IMG/VR virus record: IMGVR_UViG_3300012944_000032
From: a virus
Strand: one strand, 5' to 3'
DNA: 43,988 nucleotides
The number at the start of each line of letters is the position of its first letter. The first letter of the stretch is position 1. Below the pieces are notes generated by a model that was not told the DNA's origin, searched no databases, and worked only from the letters and a program-made list of their open reading frames with translations. A program made the position numbers and the translations under genes. Shown in pieces: positions 1 through 43,988 of this stretch.

Positions 1-123
1 AGTCTCGAAAAATCAACAGGTTGCGGTCGGGCGGACGTTCTTTTCTGTTACGACACATTACGACACATTACGACACATTACGACACATTACGAGCGACGT
101 TTCGCGTAAGATTCGCTTCTGAG
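1..123. repeat. Left copy of the exact 123-bp terminal direct repeat
   Basis: Bases 1..123 (agtctcgaaaaatcaacagg...gattcgcttctgag) are identical to 43866..43988. Confidence 0.95.
48..97 (+). repeat. 10-bp tandem array, 4 perfect CGACACATTA units (51..90) plus a degenerate unit
   Basis: ttaCGACACATTACGACACATTACGACACATTACGACACATTAcgagcgacg. The period is exactly 10 bp. It lies inside the terminal repeat, so a second copy sits at 43913..43962. Confidence 0.95.
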
Positions 124-2238: not shown

Positions 2239-2637
2239 ATGTGTATGCTACTTGAAGAAGAAGAATTAAAGAAGAGAATGGAATCTCCTATGAATCTTCT
2301 TAATAAGCTTAAGAGCGCAATAAATCCACATACCATTTCCATTCCAGCTTTGCCACCTTCATCTGATGATGTTATTGATGATATTGAACAGAAGATTACA
2401 ATTGGTTCCATCAAAGGTAAAGCTCTAGGTCTTATGAGCTCTGCATTAGATGAGCTTAAAGCTAAATTGCCAGAAGTAAGTAGACCTGAAAAGCTTGCTG
2501 CAATAGCTGCTGATATGGGTAAGGTTATCAATAACACTGAACAGCGTAAAGATGCACCTGTAGCACAAGCTCAAATTATTATTTATGCTCCACAGATGAT
2601 GGACGAGAATGTATTTAACGTAGTCGAAGTTGAGTAA
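2239..2637 (+). CDS. Hypothetical protein (132 aa; start at 2245 is possible)
   Basis: First ORF after the rightward promoter. AAGGGA lies 7 nt before ATG 2245. Its stop overlaps the next start (TAATG). Confidence 0.7.
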   Translation: MCMLLEEEELKKRMESPMNLLNKLKSAINPHTISIPALPPSSDDVIDDIEQKITIGSIKGKALGLMSSALDELKAKLPEVSRPEKLAAIAADMGKVINNTEQRKDAPVAQAQIIIYAPQMMDENVFNVVEVE

Positions 2638-3113
2638 TGCCTGATATCTTAGCGGCTATTAAGAAGGTTAAGGGAGAACAGCCGGACCAGGCTGACACTT
2701 CTGTAGAACCACGTGGCTTATTTGGTCGTCTGTTAGGTGGAAACTCACAAGCGACAACCAATCCATTCACTGGAAGCATTAGCTATAATCCAGAAGCATT
2801 GAACAAGCTATCGCCTCCTGAATTGGAGAATTTGATGGTACATGAATTAACTCATTCTAGACAAGTTCAACAAACACCTTATTTACAGCGGCTAGGTTCA
2901 GTCATGCAATCGATGATTCCTGGTATTGGTAATGAAGATTATTACCAGCGTCCTAGGGAGATGGAAGCGTTTCAAGCAGAAAGAAACAGGAGCATGCAGC
3001 AGGGTCAAAGTGTTCCAGACCCTGCTAGTGGAGCAACAGATATTAACCTCCCTGCACCATCTCCACGTCGTAAGATACTTGGAATGTTTACTAATGATAG
3101 AGGAACTCGATGA
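2637..3113 (+). CDS. HExxH zinc-metallopeptidase-like protein (DUF4157-like)
   Basis: The motif LMVHELTHSRQVQQ, followed by EMEAFQAE, resembles the DUF4157 HELxHVxQ signature. Confidence 0.55.
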   Translation: MPDILAAIKKVKGEQPDQADTSVEPRGLFGRLLGGNSQATTNPFTGSISYNPEALNKLSPPELENLMVHELTHSRQVQQTPYLQRLGSVMQSMIPGIGNEDYYQRPREMEAFQAERNRSMQQGQSVPDPASGATDINLPAPSPRRKILGMFTNDRGTR

Positions 3114-3799
3114 AGGTATATATTGGCGTACCTACATCTGAACAAGCTCGGCATGCAGCATTCTATGATTATCTCTCGCTGCTTGAGAAGCCAGAAGGTA
3201 CTTGTGGTGCTAGCTTTCATTCTAATACCGCTGCATATAATCGTAACTTGATTATTGATGATGCACTAGCCGCTAAGTCGAGCCATGTTTTGTTTATTGA
3301 CGATGACATGGCTATGCCTACTGATTCACTCATCAGGTTGCTATCACATGATAAAGATATTGTTTCAGGACTCTATGTAAACAGGCAGTATCCTCATCCA
3401 CCTGTTATCTTCAATTTTATAAATGGTACCATGTCTAGGATTTATCTAACCCCAGAGAACGCAGGTTTGATGGAGGTTAGTGCGGCTGGATTTGGTTTTC
3501 TTTTGGTTAAGACGAAAGTCTTTGCAAGTCTTGATAAGCCTTACGTGAGGAATGGTGAGATTGTTAAAGATAGACGCAATGAAGATATAGACTTCTGTAA
3601 TAGAGCACGAGCGGCTGGGTTTAAGATTTATTGTGATTTAGATTGCCCTATTGGACATATTGGAACTACTACATTCTGGCCTGCATTCTCTGAAGGTAAA
3701 TGGGCAACAACCATTGATACTGGAGGAGATGAGGTATTCGTAGCAGCACAGAATCCTACAAAATTTGGTGAGATTAGAACACCTTTGACTAAATCATAA
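3110..3799 (+). CDS. GT-A fold (family 2-like) glycosyltransferase
   Basis: DxD motif LFIDDDM. Clear paralog of the N-terminal domain of 13275..14489 (AFYDY, LFxDDD, HDKDxVSGLY, HxPVIF). Confidence 0.7.
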   Translation: MKVYIGVPTSEQARHAAFYDYLSLLEKPEGTCGASFHSNTAAYNRNLIIDDALAAKSSHVLFIDDDMAMPTDSLIRLLSHDKDIVSGLYVNRQYPHPPVIFNFINGTMSRIYLTPENAGLMEVSAAGFGFLLVKTKVFASLDKPYVRNGEIVKDRRNEDIDFCNRARAAGFKIYCDLDCPIGHIGTTTFWPAFSEGKWATTIDTGGDEVFVAAQNPTKFGEIRTPLTKS

Positions 3800-3807
3800 A
3801 ATTTATA

Positions 3808-4125
3808 ATGAAATGCAGAGATTTTTTATCATTTCTTCTATCAACGCCGTTAGCAGCGGTGATTGATTATGAAAAACTTTTTTGGGTTAAAGAGAAGACT
3901 ATATTTCTGACTGCAATAGCCCCAGTTGAATTTAATTACGATATTGTTATCCCATCACATTGGTCATCTGGAATTGGCAGACAAATAATAGATACTATAA
4001 ACGATACAGAAGTTAAATATAGATTAATTAACAGAGCCGAGGCCATTAAGAGGGGTATCCTTATCAAAGGTCAAGGATTGGAAGATATTGATATGTATAT
4101 TAGGAACATGCAAAAACTGAAATGA
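3808..4125 (+). CDS. Hypothetical protein with a hydrophobic N-terminus
   Basis: ORF packed in the operon. N-terminus is MKCRDFLSFLLSTPLAAVI. Confidence 0.6.
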   Translation: MKCRDFLSFLLSTPLAAVIDYEKLFWVKEKTIFLTAIAPVEFNYDIVIPSHWSSGIGRQIIDTINDTEVKYRLINRAEAIKRGILIKGQGLEDIDMYIRNMQKLK

Positions 4126-4373
4126 CTACTGCGGCGGTCATAGGTATTCTATCACTAGTCATTACATTTGCAATTTTTGTATTAAATGTCACATTTAAGT
4201 TAGGACATCACGCTGCCAGATTAGAAGCTCTGGAGAAGTGGCGTGATGGTATCAGAGATGATATGCATGAGATATCAGATAAGATGGAAGCAATGTTAAT
4301 TAACTTCCAAACATTAACTACACTAATTGAAGAACGAACTGAACGAAGAACATCAGCAAGGATGGCTCAGTGA
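4122..4373 (+). CDS. Small membrane protein (N-terminal TM helix plus coiled coil); holin or i-spanin-like candidate
   Basis: AAVIGILSLVITFAIFVLNV followed by a charged helical tail. ATGA-type overlaps on both sides. Confidence 0.6.
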   Translation: MTTAAVIGILSLVITFAIFVLNVTFKLGHHAARLEALEKWRDGIRDDMHEISDKMEAMLINFQTLTTLIEERTERRTSARMAQ

Positions 4374-4720
4374 AAAAGATTCTATTTAGTATTTTGTTTC
4401 TTCTATTTGCAGTGCCAGGATATAGCCAGGTTACAGCTACAGTGCAATGGAATATGCAGGAATCTCCTGCTACAGCACAAACATTTACTTACACATTGAA
4501 AATTGATGCGGCAGCTCCTACGACTCTTACCCCTGTCACCTGCAGCACAGTTAACGGAGTTAGCACTTGTAGTGCTTCTGTTGCTAATTATACTGTGGGT
4601 GTGCATACTGTTATCTTGACTGCATCAAATGCTAACGGCTCATCCTCTGGTACATTTGTTACTGGTGCTAATCCATCAGTGCCAACGGCCGGAAAAGTTA
4701 TTGTAATCATTATTCAGTAA
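4370..4720 (+). CDS. Secreted protein with a Sec signal peptide and an Ig/FN3-like beta domain
   Basis: MKKILFSILFLLFAVPGYSQ followed by a Thr/Ser/Ala-rich beta-strand pattern. Confidence 0.6.
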   Translation: MKKILFSILFLLFAVPGYSQVTATVQWNMQESPATAQTFTYTLKIDAAAPTTLTPVTCSTVNGVSTCSASVANYTVGVHTVILTASNANGSSSGTFVTGANPSVPTAGKVIVIIIQ

Positions 4721-4764: not shown

Positions 4765-6375
4765 GTGGCTTTCACAACTGGAGAATGGAAACCTACTAGG
4801 AAACAAGAGATATTTCTATCTCTGCCATTATCAATTAAAGAAGCATTGTATGGTGGAGGAGCCGGTTCCGCCAAAACAGACGTTCTCTTAATCTACGCAT
4901 TAGTTCATAAATGGCATGAACATCCTGGGTTTAAGCAAGTGTTCATGCGTCGTACATTCCCTGAACTTCGTAATGAAGTGATTCCACGTAGTAGACAATT
5001 ATATCCTAAGTTTGGTGCAACATTAAATAAATCGGATATGGCATGGACATTCCCTGCGCCAGACCAAATTGGCGGAAGAGGATTGTCAAACGCGGGAGCA
5101 ATGATTTTCCTTGCACAGTGTGAGGACGAAAATGACGTACATAAATATGATTCTATGGAAATTAACTTATTTACTCCCGATGAGCTTACTTCTTTTCTTG
5201 AGTACATTTATTTGTACGTTGGGTTTACTCGTGTACGTACTAGTATCCCTGAACTCCCGGCAATAATTCGAGCCGCTGGCATGCCCGGTGGAGTAGGACA
5301 TACATTCACAAACAAAAGATTTGTATCACCGGCTAAGCCAGGCACTATCATTGTCGGACGTGGTGGAGTTAAACGCATTTATATTCACGCTACGTTAGCT
5401 GACAATCCTCACATCGACCCGGCCTACAGACAATCACTAGAAGCATTACCAGAAGCTGAAAAGAGAGCTAAGCTCTATGGGGACTGGAATGCTTATTCAG
5501 GTCAGGTATTTGACGAGTTCAGAGATAGAAGATATCCTGATGAACCAGATAATGCATTACATGTAATAGATGAATTTGAAATTCCAGCTTGGTGGCCTAG
5601 AATCCTCATTGGTGATTGGGGATTTGCGGCTATGACTTGGTTAGGTTGGGGAGCTATTAGTCCTAATAAAAGATTGTATATTTACAGAGAACAATCATGG
5701 ACTAAAACTAAGATTGAGGAATGGGCACCAATTGTTAGGGAATTGATTGATATTGACCATCCGAGAATGATTAAGTTTTGTAAATCTGCTGGCCAAGAGC
5801 ATGGTCAGGAACATACTATTCAGGAGCAGATTAGTGATGCTCTAGACTTCCCAATTGAGCTAACTAATAATAGTCCGGGCTCTAGAATCGCTGGCAAACA
5901 ACTAATTCATGAGTATATGAGATGGAGGTCAAAGCCAATCTCGATTAAGGAGAAAGCAGCATATAGTGAAGAGCACTCAATGTGGCTTCTTCGTAATAGA
6001 GGAATGAATGAATACAAGTCATACATGATGTCATTTATTGAGCCAGCAGAAGAATCTAATCTACCCAAGTTACAAATTTTTAGTTCCTGCAAGTTGCTCA
6101 TTGATGCTATTAAAGCATGTTCATACGACAAGAAGAAGATTGAGGATATTGCTGCATTCGCTGGTGATGACCCTATCGATGGACTTCGTTACTTGGTAGA
6201 TGCAGCAGAGAATTACTTTGAAATTGCGGCTGATGAATTCAAAAGGATTCAGAAGCAAGAAGAGTTAGTTCATAAGCTAAGCAGTGATAATGATTTTACT
6301 GCATTCTATAGACAGATGAGAACAGCTGAATCAGATGAATCATATAAACCAATTCGCATGTTTCATCATAGATAA
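4765..6375 (+). CDS. terL: Terminase large subunit
   Basis: GTG start. Walker A-like YGGGAGSAKTD. Nuclease-domain acidic motifs IGDWGF and GDDPIDGLRY. Located upstream of the portal. Confidence 0.88.
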   Translation: MAFTTGEWKPTRKQEIFLSLPLSIKEALYGGGAGSAKTDVLLIYALVHKWHEHPGFKQVFMRRTFPELRNEVIPRSRQLYPKFGATLNKSDMAWTFPAPDQIGGRGLSNAGAMIFLAQCEDENDVHKYDSMEINLFTPDELTSFLEYIYLYVGFTRVRTSIPELPAIIRAAGMPGGVGHTFTNKRFVSPAKPGTIIVGRGGVKRIYIHATLADNPHIDPAYRQSLEALPEAEKRAKLYGDWNAYSGQVFDEFRDRRYPDEPDNALHVIDEFEIPAWWPRILIGDWGFAAMTWLGWGAISPNKRLYIYREQSWTKTKIEEWAPIVRELIDIDHPRMIKFCKSAGQEHGQEHTIQEQISDALDFPIELTNNSPGSRIAGKQLIHEYMRWRSKPISIKEKAAYSEEHSMWLLRNRGMNEYKSYMMSFIEPAEESNLPKLQIFSSCKLLIDAIKACSYDKKKIEDIAAFAGDDPIDGLRYLVDAAENYFEIAADEFKRIQKQEELVHKLSSDNDFTAFYRQMRTAESDESYKPIRMFHHR

Positions 6376-10792: not shown

Positions 10793-12040
10793 ATGGCACT
10801 TGTTGAGTCTCAAGTCACAGCACTTGAGCTTGAAAGAGTAATCCCGAAGATTCGTACTCTCTTTGAGAGAGACGATAAGTTCTTTTCAAACATTCAGAAG
10901 AGGGATGTTGAAAAGATTTCTAACCGTCAGATGCGAGTTCCTCTTGAACTGCGTCCCGGTGGCTCATTTCAGTATTTCAATCCTGATGGTGGAGATTTGG
11001 GACGTGGTGGTGGACCAACCTTCGATAAGGCTGTTCTCTCATGCGTGTTCGTCTCAGAGAATATTGAATATACCAAGCTAGCTCAGTGGGCAACCGATGA
11101 TGATAGAAAGTCTATTGTCAATGGTGTGCGTCGTCTTACAGCTACGGCATTAGATGAACTCCGGCGTCAGCTGGATTCTCAGATGATGCAGGCTGGAAAT
11201 GGTGTTATTGGTACTGTTACCACTGATACACCTGCCGGTGGAAGCAATGTTATTACACTAACAACTGATGGATTTGGTGCTCGTCTGATGCGCTTTGGTC
11301 AGACAGTTCAAGTCTTTAACGCTGCCCTCTCAACAAATCGTGGTAGCGGTCTTATCACGAATTGGGATGTTGAGAACAAAACCATTAGTATCACTCCTCA
11401 GATTGCTGGTGTGATTGGTACTGATGTGATTGTTACCAACGGCATCACTGCACCAACTGCATTGCCTGCTCTGTTTGGTATTCCATACCATCATAGCAAT
11501 GCTTCTACTGGTACGTGGCTTGGATTCTCCAGGAGCACTACACCAGAGATTCGTGCAAACAGAGTGAATGCAGCTTCGGCTGCTCTCACATTGCCTCTGC
11601 CACGTCTTGCTATCAATAAGATTGGTAACAGGATTGGTATTGACAACGACTTCTCTCCAAATGCATGGATGCATCCTGCTCAGAAGGCAGCTTATGAAGA
11701 GATTGGGCAGCTCATGTCCACTATCTTCAAGAAGCCTACTGATGAAAGTCTTAACGTCTATTTCGATGGAATGCAGATGGCTGGCGCACCAGTCAAATGT
11801 TCATTCAATTGGGATAAGACACGTATTGACTTCGTAACGGATTCAGTGTGGGGACGTGGTGAAATTCTCCCACTTGGATTCTATACTACTGATGGAAGGA
11901 ATATCTTTGAAATTCGTGGGGCATCTGGCGGTGTTGCTACGGCAGAGATCTTCTACATGGTTATTGGTACTCAGACATTCGTCAATAACCCTGCTGGCTG
12001 TGCATTCATTGACACGCTAGCCGTTCCTTCGGGGTATTAA
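10793..12040 (+). CDS. Major capsid protein
   Basis: 415-aa ORF after the scaffold. GAGGA SD. Called by position and size. Confidence 0.65.
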   Translation: MALVESQVTALELERVIPKIRTLFERDDKFFSNIQKRDVEKISNRQMRVPLELRPGGSFQYFNPDGGDLGRGGGPTFDKAVLSCVFVSENIEYTKLAQWATDDDRKSIVNGVRRLTATALDELRRQLDSQMMQAGNGVIGTVTTDTPAGGSNVITLTTDGFGARLMRFGQTVQVFNAALSTNRGSGLITNWDVENKTISITPQIAGVIGTDVIVTNGITAPTALPALFGIPYHHSNASTGTWLGFSRSTTPEIRANRVNAASAALTLPLPRLAINKIGNRIGIDNDFSPNAWMHPAQKAAYEEIGQLMSTIFKKPTDESLNVYFDGMQMAGAPVKCSFNWDKTRIDFVTDSVWGRGEILPLGFYTTDGRNIFEIRGASGGVATAEIFYMVIGTQTFVNNPAGCAFIDTLAVPSGY

Positions 12041-12041
12041 C

Positions 12042-12257
12042 ATGGCAGCAACAGTAACAGTGACAGGAACTGCTGGACCAGGACTTACCGTTACAGCAGT
12101 TGTATTTACTAACGTAACATCTTTTCAAGTTGATACAGTCAACAATATGTTAAACATGATTCAGGGTAGTGTTCCATTGCCTGGCATTGCTGTGCAAGCG
12201 GCTACTACTGTTACCGCTACGAAGAGTGGTAGCACTTGGACACTAACAATTAGCTAA
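12042..12257 (+). CDS. Small Thr/Val-rich virion-associated protein (71 aa)
   Basis: Immediately follows the capsid gene. All-beta composition. Confidence 0.6.
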   Translation: MAATVTVTGTAGPGLTVTAVVFTNVTSFQVDTVNNMLNMIQGSVPLPGIAVQAATTVTATKSGSTWTLTIS

Positions 12258-12292
12258 CTAGGAATCTATCTTTATGGTGGAGGAGGAAAAGA

Positions 12293-12598
12293 ATGATTCC
12301 AGGTCTAACAACAAAGTTATCAGAAACTAACGTAGCAGCAGCTGCATCTATTTTTGCAAAATCTGACGTTGTCAGGGTTACTGACACTACTAGCACCACA
12401 GTACTGACCACAATCGTACCAGGTGGTGCTGGTTTTAGTCAGGTAATCTTTTTGCAAAACAAAACAGCTGCTGCAATTACTATTGTTACTACTGGAAATG
12501 TTTCCGGTCAGGGCACATTTACTATTGCAATAAATAGAATGGCTGTATTGGTATTTAGTAAGTTAGAAGCTAAATGGTCAGTTTGCAACGACACGTAA
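12293..12598 (+). CDS. Small beta-rich protein, paralog family member 1
   Basis: Strong SD GGAGGAGG. Shares TTIVPGG...TTGNVSG...MAVLVFS...W with the next two ORFs. Confidence 0.7.
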   Translation: MIPGLTTKLSETNVAAAASIFAKSDVVRVTDTTSTTVLTTIVPGGAGFSQVIFLQNKTAAAITIVTTGNVSGQGTFTIAINRMAVLVFSKLEAKWSVCNDT

Positions 12599-12610
12599 AG
12601 GAGAATTTAA

Positions 12611-12922
12611 ATGCCGGACCTTAGTTTCCAGGATATCTCTACAGTACAAAATTCACTGCAGCCTAAACCTGTAACATTCGTGGCTGCAGCTACTATTTCT
12701 CCAGTAACATTTCTTACAATTCTTACTGGTAACACATCGGTATCAACGATTGTACCGCCTGTTACTGGTTCACATATGTTGGCTATTGTTCCTGGTACCA
12801 CTCTTGGTTTTACTACTGGTGGTAACGTGACTGGTGGAACAACTACTATTTCTGGAAGAGCAGTATTGCTTGTATACAATCCATTGACTAATGGGTATGC
12901 TGCTCAGTTTTCGAATGGGTAA
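12611..12922 (+). CDS. Small beta-rich protein, paralog family member 2
   Basis: SD AAGGAG. Shares STIVPPV...TTGGNVTG...RAVLLVYN. Confidence 0.7.
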   Translation: MPDLSFQDISTVQNSLQPKPVTFVAAATISPVTFLTILTGNTSVSTIVPPVTGSHMLAIVPGTTLGFTTGGNVTGGTTTISGRAVLLVYNPLTNGYAAQFSNG

Positions 12923-12970
12923 CTAGACAAGGAGTGGGGTGCGCATACACATCACGCACACTGGAGTGTT

Positions 12971-13243
12971 ATGGTTTCATTAAGTTTAGGAAGTCCTTTA
13001 ACTGTTATTGATAATACTATTACACCTACTCATGATGTTCATCGTGTCTCTGGTGAATATCCAGCTGTTATTAAAACTATTAATATTCCAAATCCGAGTT
13101 TTTGTGGTATGTTAATATTAATTGTAGATGGCTGGCTTGCATTTGAGGCTGGAGGAAATGTTATACCAAGCTCTGCACATGACCAACAACCAACTATTTT
13201 GATATATGACACTGTAATAGAAAAATGGTGCCCAAGTGCATAA
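12971..13243 (+). CDS. Small beta-rich protein, paralog family member 3
   Basis: Shares KTINIPNP...EAGGNVIP...TILIYD...W. Confidence 0.65.
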   Translation: MVSLSLGSPLTVIDNTITPTHDVHRVSGEYPAVIKTINIPNPSFCGMLILIVDGWLAFEAGGNVIPSSAHDQQPTILIYDTVIEKWCPSA

Positions 13244-13274
13244 TATAATTTTATATTGCCAGAATTGAGTAGGC

Positions 13275-14489
13275 ATGACTAAAGTTTTAGTAGCTGTTCC
13301 AACTGGTGAAACATCTAGATATGCTACTTTCTATGATTATTATAATCAATTAGAGAGGGCTGAAGGAACTCTTCATATGTTTGCTAGAGGCCAATCACCG
13401 GCTAAAGGCAGAAATATGATGATTCAGGCAGCTATTGATAATGAATGCACTCACATCTTATTTCTTGATGACGATGTAATTCCTCCGTCAGATATTCTTA
13501 AGAAGTTGCTAGCTCATGATAAAGATGTAGTATCAGGTCTCTATCCAATGAGGGATTTTCCACATTATCCAGTAATATTCGACAAGAGATTTCAAAACGG
13601 ATTTAATAGACACACTCATCTCAAGAGTGAAATTGACGGTCTAATTGAAATTACTAATTGTGGTTTTGGATGTGTATTGATTAAGATGCACGTTTTTAAT
13701 CTACTTAAAAAGCCTTGGGTTACTCTTGGTGAGTTAGAAGCTGACGGCTGGTGTGATGACATTGCATTCTTCAATAAACTTGGGGATGCTGGCATCAAAA
13801 TGTACTGTGATACCAGCGTACTTGTTGACCACATGATGACAATTCATGTTGGTTTTAGACGTGTTAATGATAGTTGGATGATTAATTATGATAATCGGGG
13901 TAAAGGTAATTTACAGTTTCCAATTACATATCCATCTTCTGACGTTGATATTGCAAGGCGTATCGATGGATGGTTATCAGATAAAGAATTAGATTTTCTT
14001 GGGGTAGCTGGTAAGACATACAAATATATCCTCGAGGTTGGTTCTTATAAGGGTAAGTCAGCTAGGGCATTTGCAGATAATACATCTGGACAAGTAATGT
14101 GCATTGATACATGGAATTCTGTTGTTTGTGGTGCAGATGGTAAGCCAATCTACACAACAAATGATGCTACTTATGTAGATTTTGTAAAGAATTTACAAGA
14201 ACATATCGAAACTAAGAAGGTAATTATCAATAGAATGAATTACAAAGATTTTGTTCCCAATGGTTTCAAGCCTGACTTTATTTTCATTGACGCTGCTCAT
14301 GATTATGAATCAGCAAAGCATGATATTGAAAAATCTATGTCAATGAATCCTTGGATTATTGCAGGTCATGACTATGATTCAAAAGTATGGCCTGGCGTCG
14401 TTAAAGCTGTGGATGAAAAATTCAGCAAAATCAACCTCGTTGATACAATTTGGTGGGTGGAAAATGACAGATTTGGTGAATCCGTTTGA
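13275..14489 (+). CDS. Bifunctional GT-A glycosyltransferase / class I SAM-dependent methyltransferase fusion
   Basis: N-terminal half is paralogous to 3110..3799 (LFLDDDV). C-terminal half has GWLSDKE, ILEVGSYKGKSARAFA, FIFIDAAHDYES and AGHDY, a Methyltransf_24-like pattern. Confidence 0.75.
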   Translation: MTKVLVAVPTGETSRYATFYDYYNQLERAEGTLHMFARGQSPAKGRNMMIQAAIDNECTHILFLDDDVIPPSDILKKLLAHDKDVVSGLYPMRDFPHYPVIFDKRFQNGFNRHTHLKSEIDGLIEITNCGFGCVLIKMHVFNLLKKPWVTLGELEADGWCDDIAFFNKLGDAGIKMYCDTSVLVDHMMTIHVGFRRVNDSWMINYDNRGKGNLQFPITYPSSDVDIARRIDGWLSDKELDFLGVAGKTYKYILEVGSYKGKSARAFADNTSGQVMCIDTWNSVVCGADGKPIYTTNDATYVDFVKNLQEHIETKKVIINRMNYKDFVPNGFKPDFIFIDAAHDYESAKHDIEKSMSMNPWIIAGHDYDSKVWPGVVKAVDEKFSKINLVDTIWWVENDRFGESV

Positions 14490-14700
14490 TCCTCTTGTTC
14501 CTGTTGAACCTGTAGTAGAACCAGAACCTGAAAAAAAACCTGTAGAACCAGAAGTACCAGTAGTAGAACCTGAGCCTACAGAAAAAGCAAAACTTCTTTT
14601 ATCTATTCAAGATGCACTAGCGGAGGCTAATGGACTTGAATCAAATATTGGTACTAGCCATCCATATTGGGGTTGGGTTAATAAGTATCGTGGAATGTAA
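14464..14700 (+). CDS. Small Pro/Glu/Val-repeat protein (78 aa)
   Basis: ATG at 14464 within the longer ORF 14359..14700. Sequence is VPVEPVVEPEPEKKPVEPEVPVVEPEP. Overlaps the 3' end of the GT-MTase gene. Confidence 0.5.
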   Translation: MTDLVNPFDPLVPVEPVVEPEPEKKPVEPEVPVVEPEPTEKAKLLLSIQDALAEANGLESNIGTSHPYWGWVNKYRGM

Positions 14701-15284
14701 TGGAAATCAATGAACCAGTAGAGTCAATTAACGCTTCGTTAGTTGACTATTACGGCGTAGATACAATCACAGGTGATCCTATCTGGCGTGTTGTATGGTC
14801 AGAGGATCAATTTGAACATAGGTTGGGAACGTATGATGATTTTGTTCCTAACACTGAAATATATCTCAGGACTGTAACTGAAGTTAGATACGTTCCTAAA
14901 TATAGACAATGGATTAAACAAAAATTCGTGTTGGAACGGCTGGTTGTTATTCCAGAATCTAACATTCCAGAGCTTCCTGCAACAAAAGTATCTTATGAAC
15001 CTATTTATGTATTTGAGACTGGTTCTGGTAAATATTTGCCACCTAATCTTCAAGCAGCTAAATTTGTTGTTGATACAATATATGCTGCTACCGGAAAGAG
15101 TTCTATGGCCAAATATAAAGATCCTGACGCCGGATTGAATAAAGAAGATCAGTTTGATAAGAAAGTTTCTGAAATTGATGCAATTCAAAAAGAATTGTTT
15201 GGTAATGAGTCCCTTGTAGGTGATGCCTTGGCACATGACCAGGCTATTGTTGTTCCACGTAACTACGAGAAAAAGGTGAATTGA
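14700..15284 (+). CDS. Virion structural protein (hypothetical)
   Basis: 194-aa ORF. ATGG/TAATG coupling inside the structural block. Confidence 0.65.
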   Translation: MEINEPVESINASLVDYYGVDTITGDPIWRVVWSEDQFEHRLGTYDDFVPNTEIYLRTVTEVRYVPKYRQWIKQKFVLERLVVIPESNIPELPATKVSYEPIYVFETGSGKYLPPNLQAAKFVVDTIYAATGKSSMAKYKDPDAGLNKEDQFDKKVSEIDAIQKELFGNESLVGDALAHDQAIVVPRNYEKKVN

Positions 15285-19032: not shown

Positions 19033-19200
19033 ATGCCACTGAATCCGCCACAAAACTTTCGTAAATATATTTCACTTCATAGGCGTGGTCTAGCCGCTAA
19101 TAGGCCAAACGCAGCTGATGTATTGCCAGGAACATTATATTTTTCTACAGATACTTTAGTTTTAGAACGGTCTAATGGGACCATCTGGGAAAGTTACTAA
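19033..19200 (+). CDS. Free-standing 55-aa copy of the fibre N-terminal module
   Basis: My translation is MPLNPPQNFRKYISLHRRGLAANRPNAADVLPGTLYFSTDTLVLERSNGTIWESY. It aligns with residues about 9-48 of 19554..20321. Confidence 0.55.
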   Translation: MPLNPPQNFRKYISLHRRGLAANRPNAADVLPGTLYFSTDTLVLERSNGTIWESY

Positions 19201-19209
19201 GGAGACAGA

Positions 19210-19554
19210 ATGGCGCGCATACCTAAGAGACTTGTTGGTCCTGCATTAATTGCTACTGGACCAACCACTGTGTATACAGTACCAGCTCTAACCAAGACTA
19301 TTATTAGACAAATTCATATTTCCAATCCATCCGGTGCTGCAGTAACATTTACACTTTCAATTGGTGCTGATGCTGCTGCTACTAGATTGTGGTCTGCATA
19401 CTCTATTCCTGCTGCTGCGGCTGGTGTTACTGACTCAGTACGTGATATTTTCATGTACGAAATCATGGACGCAGCCGAAATTCTCACTCTCTCAGCTGGA
19501 ACCAATAATATTCTTGATATTACCATCTCTGGTGATGAAATCGTTCTAGGTTAA
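19210..19554 (+). CDS. Small beta-rich structural protein
   Basis: SD AAGGAG. Ala/Thr-rich beta pattern. Confidence 0.65.
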   Translation: MARIPKRLVGPALIATGPTTVYTVPALTKTIIRQIHISNPSGAAVTFTLSIGADAAATRLWSAYSIPAAAAGVTDSVRDIFMYEIMDAAEILTLSAGTNNILDITISGDEIVLG

Positions 19555-20321
19555 TGGCTAGCCGTTTACAAGATGTAATACAGCGTGGAACTGCTGCGGC
19601 TAGACCATTAGCTACGGCAGTTGCACCTGGAACTCTGTATTATTCAACTGATACAGCCACCACAGATAGGTCTGATGGAACTAATTGGCAAACATTTGCT
19701 GATAGCTCTGGTGGTGGAGGTGGTGGTGCTAGTGGAAGAGGAATACCTGGAATAGATGGTCTTGATGGCCAAGATGGTATTGATGGTTTTCCCGGTACTA
19801 TTGGTCCTGTAGGTAATAGAGGTCCAACAGGCAATCAAGGACCACCAGGACAAACATCTCCATTTGTTATTGAACAAGAAGAATATATTTATGAACCTCC
19901 AATACCAACCCCAGGAATAATTGGCCCAGCAGGACCATCTGGCTCAATTACTACTGCACAAAAAACTAGACAGATTGGGTTAACTGTAGATGGTGGTGGT
20001 TCAGTTATTACTACAGGACAAAAAGGATATAAATCATTTCCTGTAGCTGGAACTATTACAGGAGTTAGATTACTAGCTGACCAAAGTGGTTCTACTGTTA
20101 TTGATGTATGGAAAGATACATTTGCTAATTATCCTCCGACAGTAGCAGATACTATTACTGCGTCGGCAAAACCAACGCTATCAACTCAAGACCATTCAGA
20201 AGATGTAATTCTTTCAGGTTGGACTACAGCGGTGGCGGCTGGTGATGTATTTGGATTCAATGTCAATTCAGCATCTACGATTACTCGTGTTACACTTGAG
20301 TTAACGATTGTAGTGACATAA
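19554..20321 (+). CDS. Collagen-like tail fibre protein
   Basis: Gly6 run, then G-X-Y repeats GIPGIDGLDGQDGIDGFPGTIGPVGNRGPTGNQGPPG. Conserved fibre N-terminal motif PGTLYYSTDT...DGTNW. Confidence 0.75.
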   Translation: MASRLQDVIQRGTAAARPLATAVAPGTLYYSTDTATTDRSDGTNWQTFADSSGGGGGGASGRGIPGIDGLDGQDGIDGFPGTIGPVGNRGPTGNQGPPGQTSPFVIEQEEYIYEPPIPTPGIIGPAGPSGSITTAQKTRQIGLTVDGGGSVITTGQKGYKSFPVAGTITGVRLLADQSGSTVIDVWKDTFANYPPTVADTITASAKPTLSTQDHSEDVILSGWTTAVAAGDVFGFNVNSASTITRVTLELTIVVT

Positions 20322-30841: not shown

Positions 30842-31013
30842 ATTCTATTTCATCAATTTCAATAATTACTTTATTTTTGCAATTAGTACATTCATATTGA
30901 CTTAGTAATTTAGTTGGCATATTTTCAGCTGCCATCCTATCAGAATGTTTCATATACACTTTAATGCTTTTGAATGCATGACTACAATTACCACAAACAA
31001 TCCTAATATTCAT
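30834..31013 (-). CDS. Small zinc-ribbon protein (59 aa)
   Basis: My translation is MNIRIVCGNCSHAFKS...YECTNCKNKVIIEIDEIEYE (CxxC...CxxC). ATGA overlap with the polymerase stop. Confidence 0.5.
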   Translation of the reverse strand: MNIRIVCGNCSHAFKSIKVYMKHSDRMAAENMPTKLLSQYECTNCKNKVIIEIDEIEYE

Positions 31014-33466
31014 ATTTTAATCGGTCTCATCTCAGAATAATTAGTGTCACTAAATTCAATTGAACATGGAATAGTTAACATGTAATCACGTTTCAAGCTA
31101 CAGCCAGAGAAATCAATTGGAACTTCAAAATGTTTCTTCATCAGCCTAGCATACGGTTCCCAGTTGTTAGCGGGAACCTGCATCTTTAGGCTATCATGGT
31201 CTTCACTTAGCCACATATGCTCTACATCGCCATTCAATTCATCTTCAATAGTTAATCCTGCACCTTGCACAAGATGTGCTACTGTTCTTTGCGGTATGTT
31301 TGCATATCCTTCTTTATAGAGCTGAGTGTCCATTCTTCCATTGAAGATACGAAGACCGCCATACGGGTCCACAATCGCTCTTGTGCTCTGGAGACAATCA
31401 ATGATATCCTTATGGAACTTATTTCTAATCCTTGGCGATGCGCCATGAAAAAGTTCAAGCATCTGACCAGAACGCCATTCAGATATAGACATAGGTATAT
31501 CGAACTTCTGAGCATCAGTATTGAAATTAACCATAAACTCATTTTTGCCCATGTCGTAATTCCCAGCGTGCCTAGTCTTTTTTCCACAGAACCTCTCAGG
31601 ACCATCCTTTTCCATTATGTCAACGACGGGAACAATACCAGTCGTCAGGACTAATTCTCTAGTATATCCAAATATCATTCCTGCCGTTCGTCTATGTATG
31701 TCAACCTTATCAAACGCCTCTAATAATTCCCAATCTTCTGCTAATACTGCCACGACCCTAGCTTCAGCTTGGCTGCTATCGGCTCCGATAATGACGTATC
31801 CTGGGTCGCAGATAAACATGCTTCGTATATCTTTGGCAAGTCTGCCATGTTTAGCGATAGTATGAAATGCCAATCCAATTTTCTTTGGTCTGACAGGCTT
31901 TTTGAGAATTCCAGTAGAGCTTCTGCAAGTCTCCGTTGCTGATATGCTGAAAGATGTTTTACACCTCCCATCATAATCTGGAGAGAAGCTGATGTTCCTT
32001 GACTTTTGAGTACGTATTCTTCGTTCTTCAAGGATGTTCGTAAGAATGTCTTTTTTCTCTTTTGTTTTAGCATGATTCCCCAGTAGTGCTACAATTGTGT
32101 CTTCAGATGTTGGATTGCGTTTCATAAATTTAAACTTCATTTCTTTATATAATAATTCAAACATCTGAGGATAGCTAGCTACATTTACTTCATGCCCTAC
32201 GAGTTCTGTTATCTTGTCATGAACTGCCTTAGCCATCTCTCCATACTTCTTAGATAGCTCTTTCTTTCTTGGCAAATCAATGAGGAAGCCGTTGTTCTCC
32301 ATCTTCAAATAGAATTTATGTTTCCTCATCATATACTTATAATAATAGTTCAACAGCTTTAATCCATAAACATCGCTTAAATCAATTAAGTCTTGTTCCT
32401 GTACCTCATCAATTTCATATGTAACGGCACAATCCTTAGCATTATATTTGAATAACTGTTCAACTTTCTGCTTGCCGAACTTAAACTCTTTGCCTTCCTC
32501 TTTGTAATAAGGCTCTCTTGTCCATAAAGACGATTGAACGTGGAGCTTCTTTTGTGGTAATTCTGGGAAGATAACTCTTGTCTTAATGAGGGTGTCGCTG
32601 TACAAGTTTGGGCATTGAAAACCAATAAGATTAAGTTTGAACTCGTCATACTTGAAGTTTTGCCCAATAATACGTAGCCGTCTGAGCTGGCTGTCAATCA
32701 ATCTCCATATTTCGTCAAGTTCATAGTCTCCCATATCAGTGAGCTTATGCTTACCAATAGTCCTAAGTAAAGGCACAGAGATTGCGTGGTGCCTGTTGAA
32801 AGCAAAGCCAACACAAACTGGCACGCAATTAATAGATTCGATATCAACCGACGCTTTGTCGAAGTTTTTGTATTTGTCGAAGAATCTGTAGAGGTCAAGC
32901 GAATTGTGACATATATCGAGTTCTTTATTCGGTAGAGATAACTGCCTACTTTTGGATTCTTCAACAGCCCGTGCAATATCTGATTCAATGAGCTTGATGT
33001 ACGTGTATTCAAGTCCACCTTTGTCACCTCGGTTAAACAGAGCGGCTGGATGTATAGTTGGGACTACCTTTGTAACGCCATCTTTAGCCAGGAGAATACT
33101 CCCGCGATAATTAAGTATGCCAGAATATCCAGTAATATGATTAAGAGCAGTATCCCCAATAGCCAAGATACACTTGGGTCTTCTCGGTTTGATTTCATCA
33201 TTCCAGAGATTCTCCGATTCCTTATTTATGTCAACACCTATTAAATGTAACTTCGTTAAGTCATTCATAGGTGGTTGATACTTGCATACATTAGTTATAT
33301 ATACATCACTTCGTCGAATATTTGCTTTTCTTAAACAATCATCAAATATTTCACCGGCTGGACCTGAGAATGGTACACCTGTCTCATGCTCATGTTTACC
33401 AGGTGCCTCTCCCACTGCCATTAAATCTGGCTCTAATGGACCGATCCCTCCTACGTATCTAGGCAT
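31010..33466 (-). CDS. Family A DNA polymerase with 3'-5' exonuclease and an N-terminal family-4 uracil-DNA glycosylase-like domain
   Basis: UDG4 motifs VGEAPGKHEHETGVPFSGPAGEIF and TIHPAA. Exo I motif VDIESIN. Pol motif A GADSSQAEARVVA. Motif C-like EDHDSL. Confidence 0.9.
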   Translation of the reverse strand: MPRYVGGIGPLEPDLMAVGEAPGKHEHETGVPFSGPAGEIFDDCLRKANIRRSDVYITNVCKYQPPMNDLTKLHLIGVDINKESENLWNDEIKPRRPKCILAIGDTALNHITGYSGILNYRGSILLAKDGVTKVVPTIHPAALFNRGDKGGLEYTYIKLIESDIARAVEESKSRQLSLPNKELDICHNSLDLYRFFDKYKNFDKASVDIESINCVPVCVGFAFNRHHAISVPLLRTIGKHKLTDMGDYELDEIWRLIDSQLRRLRIIGQNFKYDEFKLNLIGFQCPNLYSDTLIKTRVIFPELPQKKLHVQSSLWTREPYYKEEGKEFKFGKQKVEQLFKYNAKDCAVTYEIDEVQEQDLIDLSDVYGLKLLNYYYKYMMRKHKFYLKMENNGFLIDLPRKKELSKKYGEMAKAVHDKITELVGHEVNVASYPQMFELLYKEMKFKFMKRNPTSEDTIVALLGNHAKTKEKKDILTNILEERRIRTQKSRNISFSPDYDGRCKTSFSISATETCRSSTGILKKPVRPKKIGLAFHTIAKHGRLAKDIRSMFICDPGYVIIGADSSQAEARVVAVLAEDWELLEAFDKVDIHRRTAGMIFGYTRELVLTTGIVPVVDIMEKDGPERFCGKKTRHAGNYDMGKNEFMVNFNTDAQKFDIPMSISEWRSGQMLELFHGASPRIRNKFHKDIIDCLQSTRAIVDPYGGLRIFNGRMDTQLYKEGYANIPQRTVAHLVQGAGLTIEDELNGDVEHMWLSEDHDSLKMQVPANNWEPYARLMKKHFEVPIDFSGCSLKRDYMLTIPCSIEFSDTNYSEMRPIKI

Positions 33467-43865: not shown

Positions 43866-43988
43866 AGTCTCGAAAAATCAACAGGTTGCGGTCGGGCGGA
43901 CGTTCTTTTCTGTTACGACACATTACGACACATTACGACACATTACGACACATTACGAGCGACGTTTCGCGTAAGATTCGCTTCTGAG
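43866..43988. repeat. Right copy of the exact 123-bp terminal direct repeat
   Basis: Identical to 1..123. Implies a 43,865-bp genome unit. Confidence 0.95.
43913..43962 (+). repeat. Second copy of the CGACACATTA x4 array, within the right terminal repeat
   Basis: Identical to 48..97. Confidence 0.95.

Follow-up and report, generated by a model that had tools for sequence, protein, structure and literature searches.

We asked what a glycosyltransferase fused to a methyltransferase does among the head genes of a phage, and how a stand-alone glycosyltransferase encoded by the same genome relates to it. The window, that is, the whole stretch of DNA analysed, comprises the 43,988 nucleotides of IMG/VR virus record IMGVR_UViG_3300012944_000032, and it is the complete 44-kb genome of an uncultivated phage with a 123-bp terminal repeat (DTR) at its ends. 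The gene in question (13275..14489, + strand) starts with ATG and encodes 404 aa, as an earlier note on this DNA had described, and its product is predicted to be a soluble two-domain enzyme. The AF2 model of this fusion had a mean pLDDT of 90.2 and consisted of two domains, a GT-A glycosyltransferase (GT) domain (aa 1-200, 13275..13874, +) and a class I SAM methyltransferase (MT) domain (aa 226-404, 13950..14486, +). A stand-alone GT-A glycosyltransferase of 229 aa is encoded at 3110..3799 (+), upstream of the terminase gene, in a position hereafter called slot A. BLASTP aligned residues 3-189 of the fusion with residues 2-186 of this protein at 83/187 identities (44%, E = 7e-52), so that the paralogy claimed by the earlier note for the N-terminus of the fusion lies far past chance. 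All motifs quoted there were also present, namely (A/T)FYDY, LF(L/I)DDD, HDKD(V/I)VSGLY and PH(Y/P)PVIF, as well as ILEVGSYKGKS and FIDAAHDYES, and the assignment of the two domains and of the paralog is fully supported by motifs, profiles and fold.

The GT-A fold is a Rossmann-like alpha/beta fold, and its common core, as Taujale et al. are said to have defined it, consists of a DxD motif for the metal and the nucleotide-sugar, a G-loop, an xED motif with the catalytic base and a C-terminal His. We found all four in the AF2 model and the motifs of the GT domain, where the DxD is D65-D66-D67, the G-loop lies at G88, the xED is D161-D162 and the C-terminal His is His186, together with R46. In an alignment of 21 GT-MT fusions with identities down to 29%, R46, D65, D67, G88, D162 and H186 were invariant, while D66 and D161 were at least 90% conserved; the equivalents of the core residues were invariant in 30 stand-alone GTs. 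The family of the GT, which the earlier note had left to a profile search, could be placed with a 30-member family profile against the PDB, in which A197 of STIV was the best match (E = 2.2e-6) and the next match had an E value of 0.014. Foldseek with the GT domain likewise found A197 (TMt 0.63), and also COLGALT1, the LH3 GT domain and KfiA. Both proteins matched PHROG 1574, which is annotated 'unknown function' (E = 8.2e-16 for the fusion and 3.4e-22 for the paralog). Judged by these profiles, the GT domain is a member of the A197-like viral GT-A family, PHROG 1574; the GT family comprised 1,286 representative clusters at E <= 1e-30. In Pfam, the GT half of the fusion stayed below the thresholds of Anp1 (27.1 bits vs a cutoff of 28.8), Glycos_transf_2 (15.7 vs 23.3) and Glyco_transf_21, the paralog reached 22.3 bits against the Anp1 cutoff of 28.8, and NCBIfam gave only insignificant matches for the fusion and no usable family. 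Filing of the GT under GT2 (PF00535) or GT62 (Anp1, PF03452) was therefore rejected. A collagen-type hydroxylysine acceptor, considered for the COLGALT1 and LH3 matches and for a G-X-Y run in the ORF at 19554..20321, was also rejected, because the run contains no lysine.

The methyltransferase half passed the Pfam threshold, with a Methyltransf_24 (PF13578) match on residues 253-354 of 33.9 bits against a gathering score of 26.3. Its motif I reads E254-V-G256-S-Y-K-G260-K-S262 and is followed by D278, FID339AAH342 and GH365D366; E254, G256, G260, S262, D278, D339, H342, H365 and D366 were invariant in the 21 fusions. As far as these residues and those of the GT domain indicate, the catalytic equipment of the fusion is intact and conserved. 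The best PDB match of the MT profile was MeT1 of M. hassiacum (E = 1.1e-7), followed by cation-dependent catechol/CCoA O-methyltransferases, and Foldseek with the MT domain also found MeT1 (TMt 0.63-0.67). Because of this homology and of the fusion to a GT, we infer that the domain is a MeT1-like O-methyltransferase whose substrate class would be sugars. A sequence scan found no TM segment or signal peptide in either enzyme, and no 19-mer of the two GT proteins exceeded a KD of 1.4, indicating that both would act in the cytoplasm, the site of virion assembly.

We then considered where the two genes lie. Both belong to one closely packed run of late genes on the + strand, and the replication module, which is of lytic type (PolA, DUF3987 primase-helicase, SNF2 and PD-(D/E)XK), is on the opposite strand. 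The placement of both genes in the late structural operon, as stated earlier, thus holds for the late run, and the fusion does lie in the head block, but the paralog occupies the slot before the terminase gene. Its neighbours there are not head genes: next come genes whose products are a TM protein and a signal-peptide protein, and the large terminase gene (TerL, 4765..6375) lies downstream. Orthologs of the paralog with 57-66% identity were found in slot A of five relatives (L001, L090, L098, L103 and L016). A scan for promoters and terminators around the fusion gene gave nothing over shuffled background. Apart from TerL, whose identification comes from PHROG only, every ORF of 200 aa or more was scanned with Pfam, as were smaller ORFs flanking both slots; the scan found no integrase or repressor domain and no ThyS, TET/5mYOX (TET_JBP), C5-MT or DNA methylase. 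Nucleotide-sugar genes were likewise not found in the genome. Full-length homologs of the fusion, with 40-79% identity, were carried by phage-like contigs of 39-48 kb. Near-DNA and capsid-protein searches of 50,697 phage records gave no match and hence no cultured relative or host, and the capsid protein had 0 relatives in 185,579 species genomes, which leaves no prophage or host clue. A tblastn search of the same phage records with the fusion (E <= 1e-5) returned 8 records, 0 of them actinobacteriophages, and the host is probably not an actinobacterium.

The fusion gene sits in a variable position, slot B, between the capsid gene and a core gene. The upstream border is the major capsid gene (10793..12040, +, 415 aa; PHROG 14242 major head protein, E = 3.7e-6), which is conserved more strongly than any other gene of the clade (69-95% protein identity, 80 IMG/VR loci); on its 5' side lie an ORF of portal size (776 aa) and a scaffold-like one with 37% charged residues. 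The downstream border is a 194-aa core gene (14700..15284, +), homologs of which flank slot B in all relatives; two genes past this homolog, relatives showed a weak Pfam SU10_adaptor match. A conserved small gene (14464..14700, +, 78 aa) overlaps the 3' end of the fusion by 26 nt. Four small ORFs separate the capsid gene from the fusion. One of them (12042..12257, +) encodes a Thr/Val-rich head-region protein of 71 aa with 22.5% Thr and 2.8% charged residues, and its homologs lie directly 3' of the capsid gene in relatives, where they are sometimes duplicated; we regard it as a candidate head-region accessory protein and glycan acceptor. The other three (12293..12598, 12611..12922 and 12971..13243, all +) encode paralogous beta-rich proteins of ~90-103 aa. 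One HMM recovered all three with E values from 1e-40 to 2e-24, a result that is partly circular, as all three are in its alignment, and their kinship is independently supported by a T(T/G)GN motif, by cross-family tblastn/BLASTP matches and by a joint alignment. AF2 gave an all-beta model of such a small protein with a pLDDT of 70.8. A profile search of the PDB with the 103-aa protein found no match, and Foldseek gave a weak, non-significant likeness to the C-terminal sandwiches of tail fibres and depolymerases (best E 0.12). These proteins are candidate capsid-surface proteins or acceptors.

In all assessable relatives, also those without a GT, the gene after the capsid gene or close behind it encodes at least one member of this small-protein family, indicating that the small proteins do not depend on the cassette. 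As core genes kept in GT-less relatives, they were rejected as obligate partners of the GT. N-x-S/T sequons in them were also rejected as acceptor sites, because the invariant G-N often precedes a residue other than S/T in homologs. No conserved acceptor motif was found. When S/T enrichment was compared between relatives with and without a GT, a single column emerged in each of two proteins, T222 in the capsid protein and T63 in the 103-aa protein, and both signals were weak and confounded by phylogeny.

In a capsid-anchored census, slot B contained a GT at 12/53 assessable loci, and no GT was present in 19/31 relatives with both slots covered, in which the small proteins were retained; the cassette is accessory within the clade. 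At each of the 12 census loci with a GT in slot B, the cassette lay between the capsid and small-protein genes and the head-tail genes. Among loci selected for the GT that hold the capsid gene, 12/14 carried the cassette in slot B; the exceptions were L015 and L016, and in L015 a small protein and the GT had been relocated together and now lie upstream of the portal. The cassette took the forms GT-MT, MT then GT, and MT plus X-GT, and upstream of the terminase gene MT plus GT-radical-SAM. Adjacent genes in the order MT then GT were found at ten loci (L009, L010, L012, L013, L014, L090, L094, L101, L119 and L122), and both fusion orders occurred among distinct 50%-identity clusters. Since GT and MT are fused here and encoded by adjacent genes in relatives, this gene organization indicates that they are functionally coupled. 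Further domains joined to the GT family were a second GT, GT17, radical SAM, an FkbM MT and a nucleotidyltransferase, and one relative (P0107) combines three domains as GT2-MT24-GT17. A second lineage with a P22-like portal and coat (L017, L019 and L165) encodes a GT-MT fusion of 30% identity in the same position, the order being coat, a Thr/Ala/Val-rich repeat protein of 563/594 aa, GT-MT and, further downstream, an SU10-type adaptor. No homology was detected between these 563/594-aa repeat proteins and the ~100-aa small proteins. Because slot B is a hot spot for variable genes in general, the position by itself might mean no more than that insertions are tolerated there.

The earlier note had proposed that the virion carries a methylated glycan. 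This is the best-supported reading, because the position is kept in two capsid lineages, A197 and MeT1 are the nearest relatives of the two domains, the enzymes are soluble, and the genome has no integrase or hydroxymethyl-base pathway; the support is nevertheless circumstantial, and the cassette is missing from most relatives. That the two genes bring about O-methylated glycosylation of virion proteins is, in our judgement, about evenly balanced between true and false. Such a role has precedents in the O-methyltransferase and GT cassettes of mycobacteriophages and in A064R of a chlorovirus. The two genes would form an accessory glycan cassette whose expression goes together with that of the late structural genes. 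During assembly in the cytoplasm, virion proteins would receive sugar from host nucleotide-sugars through the A197-like GT-A domains, by a metal-dependent mechanism using the DxD, the xED base and the C-terminal His. The sugar would most plausibly be accepted by the capsid protein or by the Thr-rich small beta proteins from the genes directly upstream. The MeT1-like MT domain would then O-methylate the sugar with SAM, so that the glycan is capped or diversified, and the stand-alone paralog would attach another sugar or act on another acceptor. The benefit could be surface shielding or altered adhesion.

The enzymes could instead modify a host glycan, such as an O-antigen, a capsule, a teichoic-acid precursor or a lipid-linked intermediate, from the cytoplasmic face, with the late effect that a masked receptor would keep progeny from being trapped on debris and would block superinfection. 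Phage-encoded GT-A enzymes that alter host surface polymers do exist, as in the Gtr systems and TarP. The weak sequence resemblance of the GT to polysaccharide GTs (Mnn9/Anp1, GlfT2 and KfiA), the patchy accessory spread, like that of a host-range or fitness moron, and the TM-protein and signal-peptide-protein genes after the slot-A GT all point in this direction. Moreover, TarP is a named structural homolog of phage GT-A enzymes (bioRxiv 2023.12.21.572611), and the substrate of MeT1 is a polysaccharide and not a glycoprotein (PMC9883506). However, the complete genome, in which no integrase or lysogeny genes were found, argues against lysogenic conversion, and neither the integrase or repressor of a temperate phage nor the membrane partner or membrane-associated GT that belongs to Gtr- or TarP-type modifiers was found: a flippase and a membrane-bound partner GT are both lacking, and the two enzymes contain no TM segment. 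The genes also lie within the head-gene run and not in an early or immunity region, and action on a host glycan would not explain why they recur directly behind the coat gene in both capsid lineages. We therefore consider it rather unlikely.

A further explanation, which we find quite improbable, is that a host cytoplasmic protein or small molecule is glycosylated and the sugar then methylated, for takeover or anti-defence and unrelated to the virion. GT-A toxins, which inactivate host proteins through mono-glycosylation, offer a parallel, and the predicted soluble, cytoplasmic nature of the enzymes, their accessory distribution and a family lacking an annotated function (PHROG 1574 'unknown', no NCBIfam match) would fit. 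Such functions are normally those of early genes, whereas both GTs lie in the late structural run; the fusions with further glycan-tailoring domains suggest an elaborated glycan and not a single inactivating sugar, and the positional link to the coat genes would again be unexplained. Very unlikely, finally, is that the GTs glycosylate phage DNA at a hydroxymethyl-pyrimidine or other modified base against restriction, with the MT modifying the sugar or the DNA. Many phage GT-A enzymes act on 5hmC and have common R...DDD...ED(Y/F) motifs, and hydroxylated-base pathways are normally clustered with the GT (bioRxiv 2023.12.21.572611). Weak PHROG matches joined the MT half to a 'DNA methyltransferase' family and the GT half to beta-glucosyl-HMC-alpha-glucosyltransferase (E = 5e-4), and Pfam TAGT matched one relative (P0058) below threshold and did not match the window protein. 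However, those shared motifs are the generic GT-A core, and no co-occurring hydroxylated-base pathway was found, the complete genome having no thymidylate-synthase-like hydroxymethylase, TET/5mYOX or C5-methyltransferase among ORFs of at least 200 aa. The genes also belong to the head module, the replication module being on the other strand, and the nearest relatives of the MT are sugar and catechol O-methyltransferases, not DNA methyltransferases.

To our knowledge, glycosylated virions have been documented for few phages only, namely mycobacteriophages, whose glycan shield changes antibody recognition. If O-methylated glycosylation of the virion is correct for this phage, it would reach an abundant uncultivated soil/freshwater phage clade and a second capsid lineage, PHROG 1574 as a large family lacking functional annotation would gain a role, a compact enzyme of two domains would become available for placing methylated glycans on protein scaffolds, and a GT-MT gene directly behind the coat gene would be a genomic marker of glycosylated phages in metagenomes. 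More tentatively, and as a possibility that falls short of probable, A197-like GT cassettes with swappable MT, second-GT and radical-SAM modules may be a widespread, horizontally exchanged capsid-glycan module that tailed phages of the environment place directly behind unrelated coat genes, adding O-methylated sugars to coat or small Thr-rich proteins. In that case virion glycosylation would be common far past actinobacteriophages and giant viruses.

Among solved structures, MeT1 (PDB 6G7D/6G80) is the closest relative of the MT domain and shares the motifs E-x-G-x-x-x-G-x-S, F-I-D-G/A-x-H and H-D. It is the 1-O-methyltransferase of methylmannose polysaccharide and methylates a sugar hydroxyl (PMC9883506); unlike the fusion, it is a stand-alone bacterial enzyme acting on the anomeric OH of a cytoplasmic polysaccharide precursor, and at an identity of only ~18-20% its regiochemistry and substrate are not transferable. 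For the GT, the closest relative of solved structure is STIV A197 (PDB 2C0N), both by profile (~145 positions) and by fold; with its single domain of ~200 aa, it is as minimal in size as the protein of 3110..3799. A197 is essential, and it is suspected of glycosylating its virus's major capsid protein, which does carry glycans (PMC10551542), but it comes from a crenarchaeal virus with another capsid architecture, has no methyltransferase partner and is only ~18% identical. A064R of chlorovirus PBCV-1 is a single polypeptide made up of a GT-A rhamnosyltransferase, a second rhamnosyltransferase and a class I SAM methyltransferase; it builds and 2-O-methylates the terminal sugar of a capsid-protein glycan (PMC9614988). 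Like the fusion, it is a virus-encoded soluble multidomain protein in which a DxD GT-A domain is joined to a sugar O-methyltransferase, a predicted one in the fusion; it differs in belonging to a eukaryotic giant virus and in having three domains (GT-GT-MT) where the fusion has two in the order GT-MT, and its GT34-like first domain was not among the top 50 PDB Foldseek matches of the window protein. As for mycobacteriophages, PMC11600133 (citing Freeman 2023) describes an O-methyltransferase and three GTs by which capsid and tail tube of cluster O phages are modified, and the same paper and PMC11256854 describe an O-methyltransferase gene followed by tandem glycosyltransferases in Che8 (cluster F) and Corndog-type (cluster O) phages. 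The Che8-type cassette lies near the right genome end (PMC11256854), whereas here GT and MT are fused inside the head block. The Che8 and Corndog enzymes showed no sequence-level homology with the fusion (tblastn, 50,697 phage records, E <= 1e-5), the Che8 GT (Q855A2) being a Foldseek match at the level of fold only (E = 7.9e-9), and the mycobacteriophage glycans have been shown on capsid and tail-tube proteins. The two systems nevertheless share their composition, since phage-encoded soluble GTs and an O-methyltransferase, here one fused ORF and a second co-directional GT, stand together in a cassette that is accessory within its phage group.

Both genes described in the earlier note are present on the + strand, an ORF at 13275..14489 encoding a 404-aa protein and one at 3110..3799 encoding a 229-aa protein. 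The longer product carries the two domains reported there, a GT-A glycosyltransferase (GT) fused to a class I SAM methyltransferase (MT), and every motif quoted was found in the sequence. The claimed paralogy also held, with residues 3-189 of the fusion aligning to residues 2-186 of the stand-alone GT at 44% identity (BLASTP, E = 7e-52). In Pfam, Methyltransf_24 matched fusion residues 253-354 with 33.9 bits, above the gathering score of 26.3, while the Anp1, Glycos_transf_2 and Glyco_transf_21 matches on the N-terminal half were all sub-threshold. PHROGs assigned both GT domains to phrog_1574, annotated as 'unknown function', and the NCBIfam search gave no family for either protein.

Conservation was assessed in an alignment of 21 full-length fusions, reaching down to 29% identity. 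In the GT half, R46, D65, D67, G88, D162 and H186 were invariant and D66 and D161 were conserved in at least 90%; together they make up the DxD motif, G-loop, xED base and C-terminal His that define the common core of GT-A enzymes. In the MT half, E254, G256, G260, S262, D278, D334, D339, H342, H365 and D366 were invariant. The AlphaFold2 model of the fusion (mean pLDDT 90.2, pTM 0.73) shows a small beta subdomain joining the two domains. Foldseek matched the GT domain in the PDB to A197 of the archaeal virus STIV (TMt 0.63), human COLGALT1, the LH3 GT domain and KfiA. The placement of the GT family called for in the earlier note was obtained with a profile of 30 stand-alone members, which put it nearest A197 (E = 2.2e-6; next match 0.014), an essential viral GT suspected of glycosylating the STIV capsid protein (PMC10551542). 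The MT domain matched Mycobacterium hassiacum MeT1 (TMt 0.63-0.67), followed by cation-dependent O-methyltransferases, and its profile also found MeT1 (E = 1.1e-7), a sugar 1-O-methyltransferase of the methylmannose polysaccharide pathway (PMC9883506). Neither window GT contains a hydrophobic segment (maximum Kyte-Doolittle 19-mer 1.4), indicating that both are soluble cytoplasmic enzymes.

The first and last 123 bases of the window (1-123 and 43866-43988) form an exact direct terminal repeat, and the window is therefore a complete phage genome with 43,865 bp of unique sequence. Within the repeat, the tandem 10-mer ACGACACATT occurs in 4-5 copies at about 49-95 and may be a packaging or replication signal. 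Late genes occupy the + strand from about 2.2 to 28.4 kb and include the large terminase (4765..6375), a portal-sized ORF of 776 aa, a scaffold-like ORF (37% charged), the major capsid protein (10793..12040, PHROG 14242) and tail genes. A replication module of lytic type occupies the - strand, with a DUF3987 primase-helicase, PolA, a PD-(D/E)XK nuclease, an AAA_24 protein and a SNF2 helicase; PolA, a family A DNA polymerase (31010-33466), has an N-terminal uracil-DNA-glycosylase-superfamily domain (Pfam UDG, E = 1.5e-24). A search of 50,697 phage records gave no cultured relative by DNA or capsid protein.

The fusion gene is co-oriented with the head genes and tightly packed, with a 31-nt gap upstream and a 26-nt overlap downstream with a 78-aa + strand ORF (14464-14700). 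The N-terminal half of this ORF is Pro/Glu-rich; several related loci (L093, L103, L118) have small ORFs with its C-terminal ESNI..YW..N..R motif immediately ahead of the conserved 194-aa gene (14700..15284 in the window). Full-length fusions with 40-79% identity were found on phage-like contigs of 39-48 kb. We mapped synteny in 19 loci picked by GT and in 80 IMG/VR loci picked solely by capsid protein, and both sets place the GT cassette in one variable slot, bounded by the capsid gene plus its small proteins on one side and the 194-aa gene on the other. The slot may hold a GT-MT fusion, the window's own arrangement, or separate MT and GT genes in reverse order (L009, L010, L012, L013, L014, L090, L094, L101, L119, L122), an MT with a two-domain X-GT protein (L083) or a GT by itself. 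A second slot, upstream of terminase, holds orthologs of the stand-alone GT in L001, L090, L098, L103 and L016, and in L084 (5458-7600) a stand-alone Methyltransf_24 gene followed by a GT-radical-SAM fusion. Among capsid-selected loci, 12 of 53 assessable ones have a GT after the capsid genes, nine of these with an MT, and 19 of the 31 with both slots covered have no GT whatever; the cassette is thus accessory in this clade. L015 differs in that the small protein and the GT both lie upstream of portal, having moved there together.

The capsid-to-194-aa-gene interval is hypervariable, from 380 nt to 2.9 kb across the clade (12040-14700 in the window; equivalents in L086-L164). It gathers small, nearly uncharged, beta-rich ORFs (the 71-aa, 61-aa 'MPKDxIQ' and ~210-aa 'MPGNEQFGRGN' families) and, in L142 and L156, a ~300-aa beta-helix-like ORF, a pattern that suggests a site for capsid-surface accessories but also a general insertion hot spot. 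The small proteins at 12293..12598, 12611..12922 and 12971..13243 are three paralogs, sharing a T(T/G)GN motif, full-length alignment and cross-family matches; the HMM score that recovers all three is partly circular because the HMM was built from an alignment containing them. The family belongs to the core genes of the clade and was found after the capsid gene at each locus that could be assessed. The predicted structure of the 103-aa member was moderately confident, and Foldseek and a PDB profile search gave no significant structural neighbour. A comparison of Ser/Thr enrichment between relatives with and without a GT, aimed at acceptor positions, picked out a single weak column in the capsid protein (T222) and one in the 103-aa protein (T63), both confounded by phylogeny.

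A second phage lineage, with a portal and coat that score as P22_portal and P22_CoatProtein in Pfam, also carries fusions, about 30% identical to the window protein; the window's own portal and coat match neither family. Reading downstream, L017, L019 and L165 have portal, scaffold and P22-like coat genes, then one for a 563/594-aa repeat protein and the GT-MT gene, with an SU10-type adaptor farther on. The order 'coat, low-charge beta protein(s), GT-MT' therefore recurs across Pfam-distinct capsid lineages, and no other evidence argues as strongly that the placement serves a function and is not accidental. The 563/594-aa proteins (L017, 8001-9689; L165, 5927-7708) are Thr/Ala/Val-rich and may be capsid decoration or fibre proteins and candidate glycan acceptors. 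They consist of ~100-aa repeats, each with a terminal conserved (Y/F)-x-N-x-T-(A/S)-A-x-(I/V)-T-P motif.

Searched against 1.84 billion 50%-identity clusters, the fusion profile found 75,152 representatives at E <= 0.001 and 1,286 at E <= 1e-30. Of the 150 best matches, about 50 run the full length as GT-MT by our own count of the match ranges listed; others have an N-terminal MT and a second matched stretch, which we read as MT-GT. Further fusion partners of the GT domain are radical SAM, on either side (P0031, P0037, P0091, P0099, P0100), FkbM methyltransferase, and GT2 or an N-terminal domain of no known type. Three-domain GT2-MT24-GT17 proteins were found as well, and a 609-aa protein combines an NTP-transferase-like domain, an MT24 domain and a putative GT domain. 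These modular fusions point to synthesis of elaborated, tailored glycans. On a 190-kb T4-like contig (L085, 7968-20873), a GT-FkbM protein lies between neck-protein and collagen-like fibre genes, beside a 678-aa GT1/GT2 protein, a second FkbM MT, a sulfotransferase and an APS kinase, an arrangement suggestive of a cassette that makes a glycan both methylated and sulfated. Foldseek matches in BFVD were mostly GT/MT proteins of uncultured Caudovirales, and included a Che8 glycosyltransferase as well as giant-virus proteins of both GT and MT type.

Several neighbouring + strand ORFs were also inspected. A 158-aa ORF (2637-3113) meets the start of the stand-alone GT in an ATGA overlap and gave no match in Pfam, PHROG or NCBIfam; it contains HELTHSRQ, an HExxH(xxQ) zinc-metallopeptidase-like motif reminiscent of DUF4157, and has homologs at different positions in L006, L010 and L013. 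Between the stand-alone GT and terminase lie an 83-aa ORF with an N-terminal TM helix (4122-4373) and a 116-aa ORF (4370-4720) with a Thr/Ser-rich body of just 5% charged residues. The latter's Bacteroidota-style signal peptide, MKKILFSILFLLFAVPGYSQ, may give a weak hint of the host phylum. A 255-aa ORF (19554-20321) with a collagen-like G-X-Y run, GIPGIDGLDGQDGIDGFPGTIGPVGNRGPTGNQGPPGQ, is probably a fibre; the run was rejected as a COLGALT-type substrate because it has zero lysine. By tblastn, the 55-aa ORF at 19033..19200 cross-matches in relatives the N-terminal region of homologs of this 255-aa ORF.

We consider it an even call that the cassette acts on the virion: the GT domains would glycosylate virion proteins with host nucleotide-sugars during assembly, the MT domain would O-methylate the attached sugar, and the stand-alone paralog would add a second sugar or serve a second acceptor. 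The two catalytic domains are intact, the enzymes cytoplasmic, the gene co-oriented with head genes and its position recurring; GT and MT are coupled by fusion in both orders and by adjacency. We found no integrase, nucleotide-sugar enzyme or tRNA in the window. The accessory distribution and the polysaccharide-type relatives are also compatible with modification of a host glycan or masking of a receptor, but this is unlikely because lysogeny genes and membrane partners are absent and the link to the coat gene would be left unexplained.

A cytoplasmic host target is less probable still, fitting poorly with both the late-operon placement and the glycan-tailoring fusions. DNA glycosylation we regard as very improbable: hydroxymethyl-base pathways normally cluster with the GT (bioRxiv 2023.12.21.572611), yet this complete genome has none, with no thymidylate-synthase-like hydroxymethylase, TET/JBP enzyme or DNA C5-methyltransferase found in the window, and the MT is of the O-methyltransferase type.

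Two known systems come closest in function. Mycobacteriophage cassettes of an O-methyltransferase and GTs modify capsid and tail tube (PMC11600133, PMC11256854, PMC13313380, all citing Freeman et al. 2023), and the GT-GT-MT protein A064R of a chlorovirus both assembles the terminal part of the capsid glycan and methylates it (PMC9614988). At sequence level the window cassette does not belong to the mycobacteriophage enzyme families. It joins an A197-like GT to a MeT1-like MT in one protein, is inserted directly behind the coat gene and comes from an uncultivated phage clade.
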